Below, one piece after another: positions 2-9,004 of a stretch of 64,000 bases of DNA; position 1 is the stretch's first letter; each line of letters starts with the position of its first letter. Source of the stretch: an uncultured Clostridia bacterium (GTDB lineage Bacteria; Acidobacteriota; Blastocatellia; UBA7656); the NCBI GenBank assembly GCA_964468725.1, contig CAYXVU010000002.1, forward strand, positions 993 to 64,992. Reading direction: 5' to 3'. Position numbers and translations under genes: made by a program. The notes beneath the pieces are model-generated. The model saw only the letters and a program-made list of their open reading frames with translations. It made no database searches and was not told the origin of the DNA.

Positions 2-1150
<1,149 letters not shown>

Positions 1151-1208
1151 GCGGGCATCGCGCAGTCAGCGTATAATCGTCACACGTTTATCGTTTGAGG
1201 CTGGCAGA

Positions 1209-1382
1209 ATGAGTTTTCTAATTGAGATTGAGCGAGAAGAGGGCGGACGCTGGGTGGCCGAAGTCACCGATCTGCCCGGCGTGATGGTGTACGGACAAAC
1301 CCGCGACAAGGCCATCGTTCGCGTGCAAACTCTGGCCTTGCGCATCGTCGCCGACAGACTGGAACAAAGAAACCTTGCATAG
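1209..1382 (+). CDS. Small HicB-family (UPF0150) protein of 57 aa, below the ORF-track cutoff
   Basis: Its translation is MSFLIEIEREEGGRWVAEVTDLPGVMVYGQTRDKAIVRVQTLALRIVADRLEQRNLA. The pattern (I.IE.E.GG..A.VPDLPG....G.T..EA) resembles the HicB-like antitoxin fold. It lies 8 nt upstream of the MTase gene. Confidence 0.45.
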   Translation: MSFLIEIEREEGGRWVAEVTDLPGVMVYGQTRDKAIVRVQTLALRIVADRLEQRNLA

Positions 1383-1390
1383 GATCATAG

Positions 1391-2377
1391 ATGTCTAAAA
1401 TCAAAGAACAAACTTCCACCTTCGGGCGCAACAAAGAAACGCCGAATTTTTTCGGGCAGCCATTACAGCAAGGCACGTATAGTCACCTGAAACCCGACGA
1501 TATTGATGTAGCAACGCCAACACTTTTCTATTCGCATCCTAATGGACAGATATGGATAGGCGACGCGGTTGGGTGGCTGCAATCTCTGAAATCAGAGTCA
1601 GTAGATTTGATATTTGCCGACCCTCCATACAACATTAGAAAAGCCGAATGGGATAGTTTCGAATCGCAAAACGAGTACGTCAACTGGTCAATGCGCTGGA
1701 TTGAGCAAGCGTCACGCGTCCTCAAAAAAACCGGAACACTCTACCTTTGCGGCTTTTCTGAAATTTTGGCTGATCTCAAACTTCCTGCCTCGCGCCACTT
1801 TCAGGGCTGCCGATGGATGGTTTGGCATTATAAGAACAAAGCGAATCTCGGTAACGACTGGGGGCGTTCGCACGAAAGTATTTTGCATTTTAGAAAGAGC
1901 AAACAATTTACCTTCAACCTAGATGATGTGCGAATCCCTTATGGAAATCATACGTTGAAGTATCCTGAGCATCCACAAGCGGAATCCAGTCAATATGGCA
2001 AAAGTAGAGCGAATAAAAACCAACTCTGGCAACCCCATCCGAAGGGCGCAAAACCTAGAGACGTTTTGGAAATCCCAACCACCTGCAACAGCATGCATGA
2101 AAAGACGGCACACCCAACACAGAAGCCGGAAGAGTTAGTAAGAAAATTCGTGTTGGCTTCATCGAATCCGGGCGATTTGGTCATTGACCCCTTTCTCGGC
2201 TCTGGCACAACAGCAGTTGTTGCGCAGCAATTGAAACGCCGATGGGAAGGATGCGATATCACAATGGAATACTGTCAATGGGCGGCCAAACGCGTTGAAC
2301 TAGTCGAAGACTGGCCGATTGAGAAATGGATTCGTTACGATCTGGAAAATGAGCAGCGAAGGAAATCGATCCGATGA
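1391..2377 (+). CDS. Site-specific DNA methyltransferase, beta class (N6-adenine or N4-cytosine)
   Basis: Motif IV DLIFADPPYN lies near the N-terminus and motif I VIDPFLGSGTT near the C-terminus, which is the beta-class order. GC is markedly lower than in flanking DNA. Confidence 0.8.
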   Translation: MSKIKEQTSTFGRNKETPNFFGQPLQQGTYSHLKPDDIDVATPTLFYSHPNGQIWIGDAVGWLQSLKSESVDLIFADPPYNIRKAEWDSFESQNEYVNWSMRWIEQASRVLKKTGTLYLCGFSEILADLKLPASRHFQGCRWMVWHYKNKANLGNDWGRSHESILHFRKSKQFTFNLDDVRIPYGNHTLKYPEHPQAESSQYGKSRANKNQLWQPHPKGAKPRDVLEIPTTCNSMHEKTAHPTQKPEELVRKFVLASSNPGDLVIDPFLGSGTTAVVAQQLKRRWEGCDITMEYCQWAAKRVELVEDWPIEKWIRYDLENEQRRKSIR

Positions 2378-3330
2378 AACCAACGTCGCTTGCCGATTTG
2401 CAGGCCAGTGTGCAAGACCGATTCGCGTTCAGCAGGCTGGAGGATTACTTCACTCTGGGTTGCGAATTCCTCCGGTTAATAGACAGGATGCAGCCCACTC
2501 GGATTATCTCTCCTTCGCACGCGAACTATATTTTCTACCAATACAGCGCAGCCTATCGAAATCGAATTACCCGCCCCCTGAATGTGAATTTGTTTATTGA
2601 GGAGGCAGAAGAACTTGTAGGAGCAAGCGAAAGATTTGTCAGCTTTCTCGACGATTTGAAGCACCACAAAGCGGCGATTGCGACACGAAGGGCAAGTCGA
2701 AAATATATCGCTTCTAAAGAAATCAACAAAGTCATCTATACCTTGCAGCAAGCCATTGGCAGCATTGGGGATTCGTTCGAGAATGCAAATCAGTGTAGAA
2801 AAAGAGTAGGACAATTATTTGAAAACTTGGTCAAACTCGTCATCCAACAAATTGGCTTGGTGTGTGAGCCCCGCACCGTCAACATCCCGATAGCAGGGTA
2901 TTCTGATCGCAAGATGTCTTATGAATTAGATGTAGTCTTTACCCGAAGCAAGGTGGTTGTCGCAGCAGAAACTCATTTCATCCATCCTTCAGAAGTTGTC
3001 GGTTCCGTTAAAACGACAAGCAAGGATCGAATAGACAAGATATTCCTCGACAAATTTTTACTGACGAAACTTCTCGGCAGAGATATTCCCGTTGTCGCTA
3101 TTTTTCTCCATGATGTTCAGCGGGCGAACAAAGGCAATAGCATCTTTGGCATCAATTCGACTTTCAAAAGCAATCACTTTCTTGGCTACACTGTCGCGTT
3201 AAATCGCTTGGATGGCGTTTATTATGTTGATCCTAGACCGGAAATGTTCGACAACGAACGGTTGCGGGAACAGATCAGCGATTTTCAAGCTTTTTTGGTG
3301 AACGACTTATGGACTCTTTCAAACCGGTAA
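2374..3330 (+). CDS. ORFan of 318 aa, translationally coupled to the MTase; putative Type II restriction endonuclease
   Basis: Its ATG overlaps the MTase stop (ATGA). It is AT-rich like the MTase. No known family motif was recognised. YELDVVF...SEVVGSVK may be a weak PD-(D/E)xK-like signature. Confidence 0.45.
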   Translation: MKPTSLADLQASVQDRFAFSRLEDYFTLGCEFLRLIDRMQPTRIISPSHANYIFYQYSAAYRNRITRPLNVNLFIEEAEELVGASERFVSFLDDLKHHKAAIATRRASRKYIASKEINKVIYTLQQAIGSIGDSFENANQCRKRVGQLFENLVKLVIQQIGLVCEPRTVNIPIAGYSDRKMSYELDVVFTRSKVVVAAETHFIHPSEVVGSVKTTSKDRIDKIFLDKFLLTKLLGRDIPVVAIFLHDVQRANKGNSIFGINSTFKSNHFLGYTVALNRLDGVYYVDPRPEMFDNERLREQISDFQAFLVNDLWTLSNR

Positions 3331-3378
3331 GTTTGTCGAGTGGGGTTGCCTTGGCTCGTCGAAGTGCAATCGGTAAGG

Positions 3379-3430
3379 GTCAAACCGCAACCGCCTTCGC
3401 GCGGGCGCATCGGCGGCATCGAGATTTAAG
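3379..3430. repeat. Right copy of the 52-bp direct repeat; a non-coding duplicate of the HerA-like gene 3' end
   Basis: Perfect identity to 1100..1151. It flanks the low-GC cassette on the right side. Confidence 0.9.
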
Positions 3431-3607
3431 ATTTCAGCACGACCACGTGACGAGTTTTTGAGGGAAAAGAGAGTGCTGAGTTGATGATTGATTACGATGT
3501 GGCAGTTGCGAAGGTCGCAACCTACACGGTTAAAAAAGTTGATCTCGATTACTTTGACGAACTATAACCCGATTTAACGTTGTGCGAGTGCATCGGCAGC
3601 GTTGTGT

Positions 3608-4531
3608 CTAATAGGCACAGCGGTAATTGTAAAACTCATAGACGCGGCTCCACGCGCTGCCTCTCCTTTTGTAAATCCGATACGTGATGCCCTCAAAGCT
3701 GGTGTCGGCGATGATGACTTCCGATAAGCCGTCGCCGTCGAGGTCAAGATGGTCTACCAGAATTTGCGCCAAGACCTCTTCGCCGATTTGATCAATGCTT
3801 GCCCCTGACATCAAATCCTTTTCCGTCACCGCACCGTATTGCGACAGGGTGACTTTGAACTCTTTCCCCTTCGGCTCGGCAAAGAGTAAGAGCAAATAGG
3901 CTGCATCCACACCGCGCTGTTTTTTGATGACAAACGTGCCGATAATCTCGTCACGGCCATCGCCGTTTAAGTCAACAGCCGTGACGTTGAGCTGTTTGAC
4001 CGCAGCGAGCAAGTTTTCGGCTACGCCTTTTTGGTGATAAGTCTTCTGCGCGAGTTCGAAAATCGCTCTGCGTTCAGTGGCGGTCGGCTGCCGCCGCGAA
4101 ATGGTTTTGCCGCCGAGCCTGGTTGCATTGGTGGCAATCGCCATCACGCGGTCTTTGAGCCGCGCTGCGCCCGCGCCTTTGGCTTCGACGCGCGCTTGCG
4201 TGCGCGCACATTCGGCATCCTTGCCCATCCATTTTTTGACGGTGATGTCGCCCGCTGCGCCGCCGCCGAAGATCAGCCGGTATTTCTGCCCGGCGCGATA
4301 GTAGTCGCGCGCCATCCTGGTCAGCGCCGCCACCTCAGAGGTTCCCGAAGGCGGTTGCGTAAAGCGCCCTTTATTGATGATGACGATGGGGTCAATCAAA
4401 ACACCGGCAGGCGTTTTCGAAACGGCAAAGAGAACGGTTTTCTGATTGCTAACCGGCGCTTTGTTCTGTGCTCCTACGGGCAGAAGCAGCAAGACTGTGA
4501 TGAGAGGGGCAAAAATTTTGTTCAAGACCAT
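3608..4531 (-). CDS. Secreted protein with FG-GAP/VCBS-like calcium-binding loops
   Basis: A signal peptide MVLNKIFAPLITVLLLLPVGAQ follows an internal Met, so the ORF-track start at 4618 is probably too long. The motifs DLNGDGRDEI and DLDGDGLSEV are present. Confidence 0.5.
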   Translation of the reverse strand: MVLNKIFAPLITVLLLLPVGAQNKAPVSNQKTVLFAVSKTPAGVLIDPIVIINKGRFTQPPSGTSEVAALTRMARDYYRAGQKYRLIFGGGAAGDITVKKWMGKDAECARTQARVEAKGAGAARLKDRVMAIATNATRLGGKTISRRQPTATERRAIFELAQKTYHQKGVAENLLAAVKQLNVTAVDLNGDGRDEIIGTFVIKKQRGVDAAYLLLLFAEPKGKEFKVTLSQYGAVTEKDLMSGASIDQIGEEVLAQILVDHLDLDGDGLSEVIIADTSFEGITYRIYKRRGSAWSRVYEFYNYRCAY

Positions 4532-4686: not shown

Positions 4687-6615
4687 ATGTACAAAAAGTT
4701 GATGATCGTCGGTTTGCTGATCGGCTGGTTGTCGGGCTTCGCCTTCGGGCAGCAAGCCGAACGCGATATGGAGAAAGAGAAGGCCATCTGGCAGGCCTTG
4801 CAGGCCATTGCGCCGAAAACGGTCGAAGATTTCAAAGCGGCGACGGCAGCGATGGATGAAGGCAACTACGAACAGGCCGCTCAGCTTTATGAAAAGGTGT
4901 TAGCCAAAGCGCCGGATTATGATGTTGTGCAGCGTCGCCTCGGAGTGTGTCTGAGCGAAACGGAGCGCACGGCAGATGGCCGCTCCTTTTTGGAACAAGC
5001 GCTGGCAACCAAACGCTCACCGGAAAACCTGGGCGCGCTCGCCGCCGCTCTCGCCTTTCCCGGCAAAGGCAGAGTCGCGCCGAAACCGGACAAACAACGT
5101 GCCCTGACGCTGATTAAATCGGCCTTTCAGGCTGATGCCGAAAACGATCCTTATTACGCGCTGTTGCTGGCGCAAATCAGTCTGGAAGCCGAGTCGCCGA
5201 ACGATTTTCGCGAAGCCGTCCGCACGCTGTCGCAAAAACACCCGCAGTTGATGGCGACTCACTACTTCAGCGCCGTTGCTGCCGCGATGGATGAAGACTG
5301 GTTGAAGGCGGTAGCCGAGATCAACGTGGCGCAGAGTTTAGGATTGCCAGCAGAGCAGGCAAAAGCGTTTCTCGATTCCGGCGTGCAATCGAGAGCGACC
5401 GTTTGGCGCTATGTCTACTACTCGCTGGCGCTGACCGGCGTATGGGCGTTGGGATTGCTGACCCTGTTCGGACTTGGCAAGGCGCTTTCCAATCGGACGA
5501 TGCGTTCGCTGGAAACCTCCGACCCGAATGGTGCGGCCAGCGATCAAGAGGTCTCGCTGCGCAAGTTGTATCGCCGACTCATCAATGTCGCAGGCGTCTA
5601 TTATTACATCTCGCTGCCGTTCGTCGTCATCCTCGTCATCGCCGTCACGGCTTCCGTGTCCTATGCCTTCTTTGTCATCGGCTACGTGCCCATCAAATTG
5701 TTAATCGTGCTGGCCATCGGCGCGCTGGTGACGATTTACAAGATGATTCGCTCGCTCTTCGTGCGCGTCCAAGCGGAAGACCCGGGACGCCCGCTGCGTC
5801 CAGATGAAGCGCCGGGATTGTGGGCTATGACTCGCGCCGTCGCCGAAAGACTGGGCACGCGCCCGATTGATGAGATTCGCATCACCCCCGGAACCGATCT
5901 GGCCGTCTATGAGAAAGGCAGCTTCAAAGAACGCGCGCAGGATCGCGCGCGGCGCATCCTCGTATTGGGTGTCGGAGTGTTGAACGATTTTCAGCAAGGC
6001 GATTTTCGCGCCGTGCTGGCGCACGAATACGGTCACTTTTCGCACCGCGATACGGCAGGCGGCGATGTCGCCCTTCGCGTGCGCTCCGACATTATGAAGT
6101 TTGCCGAAGCGATGGTCTTGAGCGGGCAAGCGGTGTGGTGGAACATGGGGTTTCAGTTTCTCCATGTCTATGACTTTATCTTTCGCCGCATCACCCATGG
6201 CGCGACGCGTCTGCAAGAGGTGCTAGCTGATCGGGTGGCGGCGCGCCAGTACGGCGCTGACCACTTCGAAGGCGGATTGCGCCACGCTATTCGACGCACC
6301 ATCGAATTCGAAGATATTGCCTATTGGGAGATTGATGGCGCGGCCAAAGAGCGGCGCAACCTGGCCAATCTCTACGATATGGCCGCCAACCCGAACAATG
6401 CGATTGAAGAGAAGTTTAACGAGGCAATCAATCGCCCGACGACCCAAGACGATACGCATCCGAGCCCGGTCGAACGCTTTCGATTGACGAAGAAGATCAT
6501 CAGTCGGGAGGTGTCACCTGCTGCCGGAACCGTATGGGAATGGTTCACAGATCGAGAAGCCTTGACGAAGGAGATGAGCGCGTTGATAGATTCCTACTTG
6601 AGAGCGGCGCACTGA
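4687..6615 (+). CDS. M48-family zinc metallopeptidase with an N-terminal TPR-like domain and transmembrane segments
   Basis: HEXXH motif LAHEYGHFSHRD, a signal peptide, TPR-like N-terminus and internal hydrophobic helices. Confidence 0.6.
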   Translation: MYKKLMIVGLLIGWLSGFAFGQQAERDMEKEKAIWQALQAIAPKTVEDFKAATAAMDEGNYEQAAQLYEKVLAKAPDYDVVQRRLGVCLSETERTADGRSFLEQALATKRSPENLGALAAALAFPGKGRVAPKPDKQRALTLIKSAFQADAENDPYYALLLAQISLEAESPNDFREAVRTLSQKHPQLMATHYFSAVAAAMDEDWLKAVAEINVAQSLGLPAEQAKAFLDSGVQSRATVWRYVYYSLALTGVWALGLLTLFGLGKALSNRTMRSLETSDPNGAASDQEVSLRKLYRRLINVAGVYYYISLPFVVILVIAVTASVSYAFFVIGYVPIKLLIVLAIGALVTIYKMIRSLFVRVQAEDPGRPLRPDEAPGLWAMTRAVAERLGTRPIDEIRITPGTDLAVYEKGSFKERAQDRARRILVLGVGVLNDFQQGDFRAVLAHEYGHFSHRDTAGGDVALRVRSDIMKFAEAMVLSGQAVWWNMGFQFLHVYDFIFRRITHGATRLQEVLADRVAARQYGADHFEGGLRHAIRRTIEFEDIAYWEIDGAAKERRNLANLYDMAANPNNAIEEKFNEAINRPTTQDDTHPSPVERFRLTKKIISREVSPAAGTVWEWFTDREALTKEMSALIDSYLRAAH

Positions 6616-6658: not shown

Positions 6659-9004
6659 ATGAAAAAGCCCCGATCATTCCATCAGCTTCCAACTGCCGGT
6701 CTGCTGCGCACTGTGGCCTTGATCGTCGCTGTGCTCACCCTGGCGGTATGGCAGACGACAGAACCTGCGAGCGCAGCGCCATACGCCATCGAACCGCCGC
6801 CTGGGTGGGTTCAATCGGTGCCGCTGCCCGACGCGCCTACTGCCGATTCGCAAAGCGGGCTGGCTTTTCTGTTGGGCGATTATCAATACCGCGTCGGCAG
6901 CAAAACCGTCGAACGCTATTACCGGCACGTCAAAAGGGTGATGTCGACATCGGGGCTGAAGCGCATTTCACAACTGAGCTTCGAGTTCGAACCCTCTTAC
7001 CAACGACTCGTCATCCATCATCTACAGATTCAGCGCGGCGCCGAGACGATCAACGCGTTGCGCCCCGGCGAAATCAAAATCATTCAGAAAGAGGCCGATC
7101 TCGATCAACAACTCTACAACGGCCTGTTGTCGGCCTTGATCATTCTCAACGATGTGCGCGTCGGCGATACGGTGGATTACGCCTATTCGGTGGTGGGCGA
7201 TAACCCGGTACTCGGCGGACGCTACGCGGACAGTTTTCGACTCGCCACCTACGAGCCGGTACAACGCTTGCGGTTTCGCCTGCTATGGCCGTCAAACCGC
7301 ACCTTGCACTATCGCACGCAGAACCGAGAGGTGCAGCCGGTCATGACGCCTTTGGCGGGCGAAGCCCAGTATCTATGGGAACAGGAGAATGTCAAAGCCG
7401 TCGAATTCGCAGCGCAATCGCCGAAATGGTTCGACCCCTTGCCCACCCTCTATCTGAGCGAGTTCGGCAGTTGGCAAGAGGTCGTCCGATGGGCATTGCC
7501 GCTCTACCGCGTGCAACGCCCGCTCGCGCCGCAACTGGCCAGGCAGATCGAACAATGGCGCGCGGCCAGCGATCAGGTAGAAGAGCGCGTGCGCGCGGCT
7601 TTGCGCTTCGTCCAAGATGATGTGCGCTACATGGGAATCGAGATGGGACCGAATTCCCATCAACCCACGCCGCCGCCGCTGGTTTTGCAACGCCGCTTCG
7701 GCGATTGTAAAGACAAATCTCTGCTGCTGCTAACCGTGCTCAGCGAATTGGGCGTCACCGCCTACCCGGCCCTCATCAACACGGAAGCGAAGTGGCAACT
7801 GGACAAATGGGAACCTTCGCCTTATGCCTTCGACCACGTCATCGTGCAAGCGACAGTCGGCGATAAGACTTACTGGTTCGACCCCACCATCAGCTTTCAA
7901 CGCGGCAGTTTGAGCGAACGCTACAACCCCGATTACCAACGTGCCCTCGTCGTGCGCGAAGGCAACGCCGATCTGGAAACGATTCCGCAGGAGATGAGCA
8001 GCGAACCGACGACGATCATCAACGAAACCTATAGGGTCAACAGCGATGGCAGCGCTACCCGGACGCTCGTCAGCACCTATCGCAGAGCCGATGCCGATGG
8101 CATGCGCCACCTGCTCGACGACCAAACGCCGCAAGAGTATGGCAAAGCGAAGCTGGATTACTATGCGGAAAGCGAAATGAACATCGAGGCTGAAGGCGTG
8201 CCGAGCGTGACTGACGATCAAGAGGCGAACCGCTTGGTTCTCACCGAACAGTATCGGTTGCCCTCGTTTTGGCAAGATGGCGTTCATCACGTCTATTCGG
8301 ATGCCATCTATAATCAACTACAAACCCCTGACAGCAGCCAGCGAGACGCCCCTCAAGCCATCGCGCATCCGGTCAATATCCAACAGGTCATCGAATTGCG
8401 GTTGCCGCAACGAGTGCCGGTTGCAAACGATTCCGGCACTCTGGAAGATGATGTCTTGCGCTTTCGTTATCAGGTCGAAAACAGCGGCAACCTGGTGCGC
8501 TTACACTGCGAGTTGCAGACCCGAAAAGACCATGTGCCCGCCGCTGCGCTTGCCCGCCATACGGCGCTGCTCGAACGAATCGGTGACAGCCTCAGTCTGA
8601 CCCTTTACCGAGACGGCGCGCGGACGTCTGCGCGGCGCGGTACGAATTGGACAACGATTCTGGTCTACAGTCTGGTCTTCGGGCCGTTTCTGGTCTTTGG
8701 GTTGCTGAAGTTCGTGCAAAGTCGCCGAGCGCAAGGGCGACAAACGGAATTCAAAAAGAAGTTTGCCGTCGCCCCCGGCGAAGTGCCGGAAACCGCCATC
8801 GAATTACCCGACGGCCAAGAGTTGTCTTCACATCTCGCCGCCCTCACCTGTCCCTGCGGCACACCATACTATGAAGCGGGTGACCGGTTCGAACAAGCTT
8901 CGGGCATCTTTGACGGGCGACGACTGCTTGTGGTGGGACTGAAGTGCGCGACCTGCCGCAACCAACGAGACGTCTATTTTATGCCGCCACAGCCGTCTGC
9001 TTAA
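6659..9004 (+). CDS. DUF3857/transglutaminase-like cysteine peptidase superfamily protein with a C-terminal TM helix and Cys-rich tail
   Basis: A Cys-His-Asp core: GDCKDKS, FDHVIV, WFDPT. A signal peptide is present, and the C-terminus carries CPCG...CATC. Confidence 0.55.
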   Translation: MKKPRSFHQLPTAGLLRTVALIVAVLTLAVWQTTEPASAAPYAIEPPPGWVQSVPLPDAPTADSQSGLAFLLGDYQYRVGSKTVERYYRHVKRVMSTSGLKRISQLSFEFEPSYQRLVIHHLQIQRGAETINALRPGEIKIIQKEADLDQQLYNGLLSALIILNDVRVGDTVDYAYSVVGDNPVLGGRYADSFRLATYEPVQRLRFRLLWPSNRTLHYRTQNREVQPVMTPLAGEAQYLWEQENVKAVEFAAQSPKWFDPLPTLYLSEFGSWQEVVRWALPLYRVQRPLAPQLARQIEQWRAASDQVEERVRAALRFVQDDVRYMGIEMGPNSHQPTPPPLVLQRRFGDCKDKSLLLLTVLSELGVTAYPALINTEAKWQLDKWEPSPYAFDHVIVQATVGDKTYWFDPTISFQRGSLSERYNPDYQRALVVREGNADLETIPQEMSSEPTTIINETYRVNSDGSATRTLVSTYRRADADGMRHLLDDQTPQEYGKAKLDYYAESEMNIEAEGVPSVTDDQEANRLVLTEQYRLPSFWQDGVHHVYSDAIYNQLQTPDSSQRDAPQAIAHPVNIQQVIELRLPQRVPVANDSGTLEDDVLRFRYQVENSGNLVRLHCELQTRKDHVPAAALARHTALLERIGDSLSLTLYRDGARTSARRGTNWTTILVYSLVFGPFLVFGLLKFVQSRRAQGRQTEFKKKFAVAPGEVPETAIELPDGQELSSHLAALTCPCGTPYYEAGDRFEQASGIFDGRRLLVVGLKCATCRNQRDVYFMPPQPSA

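Follow-up and report, generated by a model that had tools for sequence, protein, structure and literature searches.

A Kpn2I-like nuclease of the CCGG family, predicted to cut T/CCGGA, in a probable two-gene mobile restriction unit

What is encoded by a reading frame that overlaps the stop codon of a DNA methyltransferase gene and finds no family in Pfam? The question is raised by a frame of 318 amino acids with an ATG start (2374..3330, plus strand) in a 64,000-nt stretch of DNA, which we refer to as the window. A sequence-only reading of the window had called this frame an ORFan and a plausible new restriction endonuclease, or else another DNA-targeting effector partnered with the methylase. 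Its description of the frame, of the ATGA overlap with the methylase stop and of the low-GC cassette is confirmed from the sequence: GC content is 0.43-0.50 over positions 1500-3500 and 0.56-0.61 in the flanks (0.47 for the insert as delimited below and 0.56 for the adjoining 3 kb on either side). We consider it very likely that its product is the nuclease of a type IIP R-M system of two genes, that it belongs to the CCGG family, with T/CCGGA as its most likely site, and that the two genes were acquired horizontally as a minimal mobile unit.

Judged by its relatives, the frame is a real gene and no chance reading frame: a search at E<=1e-3 brought up at least 1667 homologues, the majority about 318 aa long. 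The best 120 of these are around 70% identical and of the same length, and 397 representatives were matched in a library clustered at 50%. Their hosts include Chloroflexota, Thermodesulfobacteriota, Acidobacteriota, Cyanobacteria, Verrucomicrobiota, Planctomycetota, Bacteroidota, Gammaproteobacteria and others. The earlier statement that no known family could be recognised holds for Pfam and NCBIfam, scans of which assigned the protein to no family (the top Pfam entry, DUF6286 at E=0.11, lies below the cut-off), but it does not hold for the REBASE-derived R-M profiles of PADLOC-DB or for the PDB. The PADLOC REase_II profile PDLC03436 matches at E=1.6e-57 (193 bits) along the full length of the protein (residues 13-314 against profile positions 9-297 of 300), and it also covers the orthologue from Chloroflexus aggregans (3e-62) and a homologue on Lactiplantibacillus plasmids (3e-87). 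Among the characterised enzymes, we take BspEI and AccIII, which recognise TCCGGA and are blocked by overlapping Dam methylation, to be candidate seeds of this profile. With so many homologues, a profile of this strength and a relative of solved structure, the protein is neither an ORFan nor family-less; that label stems from the coverage of Pfam and NCBIfam and not from a gap in knowledge. Since these two collections have no model for the family, the copies in GenBank are all named 'hypothetical protein', and more than 1600 such entries can now be given a name, as Kpn2I-like CCGG-family restriction endonucleases of an m6A-protected TCCGGA system.

The solved relative is Kpn2I from Klebsiella pneumoniae RFL2, an enzyme that cuts T/CCGGA and whose structure (PDB 6EKR) is unpublished (PMC6344858). 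A phmmer search of the PDB sequences with the single sequence gave one marginal match, 6ekr_A, at E=0.007; a shallow profile of close homologues found Kpn2I at E=0.002; and a profile of 57 diverse relatives (alignment A2, 25-72% identity) returned 6ekr_A as its sole match, at E=9.1e-26 and over nearly the full length. With this diverse profile, HMMER detected no sequence similarity in the PDB to PspGI, PfoI, AgeI, BsaWI, EcoRII-C, Ecl18kI, Bse634I, Cfr10I, NgoMIV or SgrAI, enzymes that differ in their flanking-base specificities and oligomeric states. Structure prediction behaved in a similar manner. A first AF2 model, for which 32 close homologues (about 70% identical) were used, had a pLDDT of only 59.6, and Foldseek found no significant match with it; the model built from the diverse alignment reached a pLDDT of 94.3 and a pTM of 0.93, and a Foldseek search of the PDB with it, the very check for a nuclease core that had been suggested, matched Kpn2I at E=8.6e-11 (TM 0.68/0.71) and also PspGI. 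The predicted structure has the PD-(D/E)xK fold common to the solved members of the CCGG family. Profile, sequence and structure comparisons converge on the assignment of the protein to this family, with Kpn2I as its nearest solved relative.

Does the protein also carry the residues on which cleavage and recognition depend? Enzymes of the CCGG family recognise sites that contain CCGG or CCNGG and cleave ahead of the first C, leaving 5' overhangs of 4 or 5 nt; many of them, though not all, have a conserved N/Q contact to GG in the minor groove. The active site of the family is permuted and comprises a glutamate on a helix, the aspartate of the 'PD' motif, a lysine and, 12-13 positions further on, an acidic residue, while CCGG is read in the major groove by an R-(D/E)R motif with which the next helix after the lysine begins (PMC6344858, PMC5389614). 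The motifs noticed earlier (GQLFENLV with E150, YELDVVF with D186 and GSVK with K213) are present, and the three residues that had been proposed from them as a weak PD-(D/E)xK arrangement turn out, by alignment to Kpn2I, to be catalytic residues of this family (Table 1). In the model, the aligned residues all lie on the secondary-structure elements where the family would have them, E150 on helix 138-159 and D186 on strand 176-190; the residue before D186 is a leucine, so that the motif reads 'LD' instead of 'PD'. Together with D226, these residues would form a complete permuted active site, as far as alignment can tell. The recognition motif is found where the family has it, with K217-D218-R219 lying directly before model helix 220-234, at its N-terminus and after the catalytic lysine. 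Its first residue is K and not R, a K-D-R variant that is also known from EcoRII (PMC6344858).

Table 1. Features of the locus in window coordinates
Feature	Position	Strand	Basis or remark
Left copy of perfect 52-nt direct repeat	1100..1151	.	last 48 nt and stop codon of HerA-like gene, plus 1 nt
HicB/UPF0150-like ORF, 57 aa	1209..1382	+	inside the duplicated borders; ends 8 nt before the MTase start
Cognate beta-class N6-adenine DNA methyltransferase (MTase)	1391..2377	+	Pfam N6_N4_Mtase, PADLOC MTase_II
ATGA overlap of MTase stop and REase start	2374..2377	+	sequence; M before R
Predicted REase gene	2374..3330	+	type IIP, CCGG family, Kpn2I-like; predicted specificity T/CCGGA
E150 codon, helix glutamate (= NgoMIV E70)	2821..2823	+	HMMER alignment to Kpn2I; >=90% conserved in A2
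D186 codon, 'PD' aspartate	2929..2931	+	invariant in A2; aligned with Kpn2I 'vstDivi'
K213 codon, catalytic lysine	3010..3012	+	invariant in A2; aligned with K of Kpn2I 'plKITTRERI'
K217-D218-R219 codons, R-(D/E)R variant	3022..3030	+	K217 invariant, D218 and R219 >=90% in A2
D226 codon (K213+13), second acidic residue	3049..3051	+	aligned with Kpn2I Q; D is the majority in A2
Right copy of perfect 52-nt direct repeat	3379..3430	.	48 nt past the REase stop; 100% identity

The gene upstream provides the natural partner. Its product matches N6_N4_Mtase of Pfam (PF01555, E=1.8e-53) and MTase_II of PADLOC (4.4e-67), and both its catalytic motif DPPY (aa 77-80, nt 1619-1630) and its AdoMet-binding motif FxGxG (FLGSG, aa 268-272, nt 2192-2206) are intact. 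The TGA of the methylase occupies positions 2375-2377 and the ATG of the nuclease positions 2374-2376, and a Shine-Dalgarno-like AAGGA lies within the methylase gene about 9 nt 5' of the nuclease start; a scan of positions 1000-3700 for promoters and terminators gave nothing beyond shuffled expectation. This arrangement is widespread. Of 83 related loci from many phyla, 82 encode a homologous methylase (64-81% identity) directly upstream in the same orientation; it usually ends at the nuclease start, and the junction ...CGATGA... recurs. The order of M before R is kept even in the Lactiplantibacillus plasmid homologues, which are only 34% identical. The earlier view of the protein as a restriction endonuclease partnered with the methylase is supported by this linkage. 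The small HicB-like frame in front of the methylase gives weak Pfam matches (DUF1902 at 0.01, HicB_lk_antitox at 0.029). It was considered as an analogue of a controller protein, but it is missing from all 83 related M-R loci and is therefore not counted among the conserved parts of the system; nor was a homologue found in the HerA loci described below.

One might instead suppose that the protein is a PD-(D/E)xK effector of some other defence system, for example a signal-activated, NucC-like one, and that the methylase is merely its neighbour. We regard this as extremely improbable. The match to the Kpn2I fold is far stronger and extends over the entire protein, the motif for reading CCGG is conserved, and the methylase is the only constantly linked gene; the HerA-like gene is not enclosed by the duplicated borders, and about 65 relatives have it without the pair. 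The protein is a clear homologue of Kpn2I, and another type of DNA-targeting effector need not be invoked.

A different concern is that the gene might be a decaying or inactive remnant that no longer cleaves, leaving the methylase solitary. Inactivated R genes are common among R-M systems, and one related locus, L005, shows that the pair can break up: here the nuclease is intact and the adjoining methylase is only a fragment, which would be unexpected for an active enzyme unless the site is protected by another methylase. At the window locus, against this, the frame is of full length, none of the family-invariant residues for catalysis and recognition has been lost, and the ATGA coupling is intact; moreover, perfect 52-nt repeats and a foreign GC content mark the insertion as recent. 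A remnant is thus a distinctly improbable reading, and the protein is probably an active restriction endonuclease.

Which sequence would such an enzyme recognise? The best guide is C. aggregans DSM 9485, where an orthologous pair (M 75% and R 70% identical to those of the window, joined by the same 4-nt overlap) is found, with the methylase at 5006-6004 of locus L001. Three M-R pairs follow one another there, this one coming first, and the nuclease of the second is weakly NotI-like and that of the third BglII-like; the window pair, by comparison, follows a HerA gene. SMRT sequencing of this strain identified Cagg_2238 as M.CagVI, a type II enzyme that makes m6A in TccggA and had methylated 99.4% of the sites, with CagVIP as its partner in REBASE naming; Cagg_2240 is M.CagORF2240P, with a partner nuclease, and Cagg_2242 is M.CagIII, an m4C methylase of RGATCY with the partner CagIIIP (Blow et al. 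2016, PMC4752239 supplement). From gene order and approximate coordinates we infer that Cagg_2238 and Cagg_2239 are the orthologues of the window pair: the three pairs of L001 agree both with the way in which the locus tags alternate and with the pairing of an RGATCY methylase and a BglII-type nuclease. A restriction enzyme of this kind is not new, REBASE already listing CagVIP beside M.CagVI (PMC4752239 supplement); CagVIP is itself a putative nuclease, as its suffix 'P' denotes.

By transfer from this pair, at 75% and 70% identity, we predict T/CCGGA as the specificity of the window nuclease and TCCGGm6A as the protected form; the prediction agrees with the facts that an adenine methylase needs an A in its site and that the nearest structural relative cuts TCCGGA. 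Palindrome avoidance is uninformative as a guide to the site. TCCGGA is moderately depleted in the 64,000-nt window (5 observed, 18 expected, O/E 0.28), but this is not special, as many other palindromes are far more depleted, and when pooled over 82 homologous loci the hexamer is not specially depleted either (O/E 0.58, rank 15 of 64). That TCCGGA is not singled out in this way leaves some room for a CCGG-family enzyme with another site, such as W/CCGGW, A/CCGGT or a longer or interrupted sequence containing CCGG. Members of the family with one and the same fold read many different flanks (PMC6344858), and the window family has a further motif, D247-V-Q249-R250, which is invariant in A2 and has no counterpart in Kpn2I, so that the outer base pair may be read differently. 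We consider such a deviating specificity improbable, and hold to T/CCGGA. The motif itself may perhaps have a role in reading the outer base pair.

The comparison with Kpn2I is instructive because the two systems resemble each other at the level of the nuclease and differ around it. The nucleases are only 16-18% identical and belong to separate PADLOC clusters, Kpn2I falling into PDLC03502 (E=1.2e-218), a profile matched by Kpn2I-type genes on small enterobacterial plasmids, and the window protein into PDLC03436. At the acidic position after the catalytic lysine, Kpn2I carries Q (PMC6344858), whereas the window protein has D226; the recognition motif is R-E-R in the former and K-D-R in the latter; and the DVQR motif is confined to the window family. 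The Kpn2I system resides on a small plasmid and includes an HTH controller gene, and its methylase is a C-5 cytosine enzyme (PF00145) encoded convergently with the nuclease, whereas the window system has a co-directional, overlapping N6-adenine methylase and no controller protein. As a restriction enzyme, the window protein would add little, belonging to a well-understood family and having a predicted site already served by commercial enzymes. A pair of families that are predicted to share a site while differing in methylase class and in the DVQR motif would, however, offer a useful comparison for how the outer base pair is read.

How might the system work? We envision that TCCGGA in the host DNA is methylated by the upstream enzyme to TCCGGm6A on both strands, a modification shown for the 75%-identical orthologue. 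The nuclease, by homology to Kpn2I, would read the central CCGG through K217-D218-R219, which open a helix lying in the major groove, with E150, D186 and D226 holding Mg2+ and K213 serving as the catalytic lysine, and it would cut before the first C (T^CCGGA) to leave 5'-CCGG overhangs. Methylation of the outer adenine would block the nuclease, and TCCGGATC sites in DNA from a dam+ host are predicted not to be cut. The order of M before R, the ATGA overlap and the AAGGA stretch probably couple translation of the nuclease to that of the methylase; because of such coupling through the overlap, the nuclease would not be made without the methylase.

How did the pair come to this place? The insert (1152-3378) is bracketed by the two copies of the 52-nt repeat, the first of which contains the end of the HerA-like gene, and a gene of the FG-GAP type follows the cassette. 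Among some 70 metagenomic HerA relatives, a single one, locus L084 (HerA 80% identical in amino acids), has an empty site, with the HerA gene followed directly by the FG-GAP gene. We envision that the pair arrived by horizontal transfer and inserted at the 3' end of the HerA-like gene under duplication of a 52-nt target. This would be an instance of the 'insertion with long target duplication' described for R-M systems (Furuta, Abe and Kobayashi 2010, PMC2853133). Like the units of that study, the cassette is an M and R pair without a recombinase gene, has a GC content unlike that of its host and is flanked by a direct repeat of more than 30 bp in which the 3' end of the adjoining gene is duplicated; in terms of the criteria used there, both R and M lie inside, the insert is shorter than 20 kb and holds no other mobility gene, and the duplication exceeds 30 bp. 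It departs from them in that the empty site is seen only in the distant relative L084, no genome of the same species having been found to carry one; an exact-pattern search of metagenomes for the empty insertion site likewise found nothing.

The same position has been entered elsewhere. In locus L085 (HerA 77% identical), a homologous M-R pair sits at the same place within a 78-nt flanking repeat that ends at the HerA stop. Its genes resemble those of the window less (R 70%, M 72%) than they resemble their counterparts in Anaerolineae and Thermodesulfobacteriota MAGs (R 78%, M 83%), and for this reason the two insertions look independent. It is tempting to take the M-R pair for a self-sufficient mobile unit that prefers the 3' ends of genes and has entered that of HerA twice independently, a notion that we put forward as a doubtful one. 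The four cassettes with clear duplications share no conserved terminal sequences or inverted repeats, and no CCGG site occurs in the duplicated targets. If the nuclease or the methylase were to take part in integration, the system would provide a tractable model for the unexplained mechanism of long target duplication. Repeated insertions with such duplications would in any case supply many natural examples of a poorly understood form of R-M mobility: the two variants at the HerA site, with their 52-nt and 78-nt duplications, are only about 70% identical, and elsewhere the pair is tightly bracketed by long repeats of 185 nt (97%) in L003 and 129 nt (93%) in L021. Overall, long flanking repeats were found in about 5 of 74 usable loci, as compared with 2 of 108 control segments, the count starting from 8 loci at E<=1e-3 and excluding one coordinate artefact and two matches of 15 nt.

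[quoted passage not shown] The presumed target matches Pfam DUF87 (1.6e-24), NCBIfam HerA models and the PADLOC HerA model (1e-32). At the metagenome locus L085, whose HerA gene is 77% identical to that of the window, a different variant of the M-R unit occupies the same HerA position. Its genes share 70% (R) and 72% (M) identity with those of the window, and up to 78% (R) and 83% (M) with genes from MAGs of other phyla. A further relative, L084, provides an empty site. The comparison suggests that two independent M-R insertions, in the window and in L085, occurred at one HerA target.

Are such repeats confined to HerA genes? Three further family members (L003, L021 and L054) are also closely bracketed by long direct repeats, albeit at unrelated targets, and in L021 the repeat, like that of the window, is the 3' terminus of the upstream gene. 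No conserved cassette ends were found when the repeat-flanked M-R units were compared.

Coordinates of features at the M-R loci
Feature	Locus	Coordinates	Strand	Remarks
HerA-type ATPase gene	window	23-1150	+	truncated by window start; Pfam, NCBIfam and PADLOC matches
Direct repeat, 52 nt	window	1100-1151 / 3379-3430		perfect
TATAAT	window	1173-1178		perfect; upstream of HicB-like ORF
HicB/UPF0150-like ORF, 57 aa	window	1209-1382	+	weak Pfam matches only
Duplication, 78 nt	L085	6051-6128 / 8112-8189		metagenome contig Ga0187893_10002723
Empty site	L084	6040-6180		metagenome contig Ga0307468_100000003; HerA 80% identical to window's
Flanking direct repeat, 185 nt	L003	4758-4942 / 6991-7175		97%
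Flanking direct repeat, 129 nt	L021	4759-4887 / 7014-7142		93%
Flanking direct repeat, 27 nt	L054	4030-4056 / 7089-7115
Intact nuclease and methylase remnant	L005	5831-6951		Anaerolineae MAG JBGLNJ010000001.1
Second and third M-R pairs	L001	7172-10813		Chloroflexus aggregans CP001337.1
Kpn2I copy	L161	1607-2512		Klebsiella grimontii plasmid NZ_CP058116.1; 99% identical to crystallised enzyme

The HicB-like ORF sits between the two copies of the duplication, with its end 8 nt 5' of the methylase start. It is found in none of the 83 related M-R loci, and no HicA partner is present.

In L005 the nuclease is intact and keeps all motifs, while the methylase is reduced to its last ~57 codons, which adjoin an oppositely oriented ORF of 1071 aa; the arrangement represents either an unprotected nuclease, or protection by a methylase encoded elsewhere, or an assembly artefact. 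In Chloroflexus aggregans (L001), the orthologue of the window pair is the first in a run of three consecutive M-R pairs, followed by an N6_N4 methylase with a weakly NotI-like partner and then by an N6_N4 methylase with a BglII-like one; the REBASE names M.CagORF2240P and M.CagIII (RGATCY, m4C) fit these following pairs. The plasmid-borne Kpn2I copy is labelled 'hypothetical protein' in RefSeq, which shows that the annotation gap reaches characterised family members too.

The host of the window seems to have had long past exposure to many R-M systems. Measured against a maximal-order Markov expectation, numerous 6-bp palindromes show extreme depletion over the full length of the window (1-64000): GCCGGC (observed 0 versus expected 41.8), CGATCG (1 versus 28.2), CGGCCG (1 versus 27.3), CCGCGG (2 versus 27.7), ATCGAT (1 versus 18.3), GTCGAC (1 versus 15.2) and CTCGAG (2 versus 21.6).
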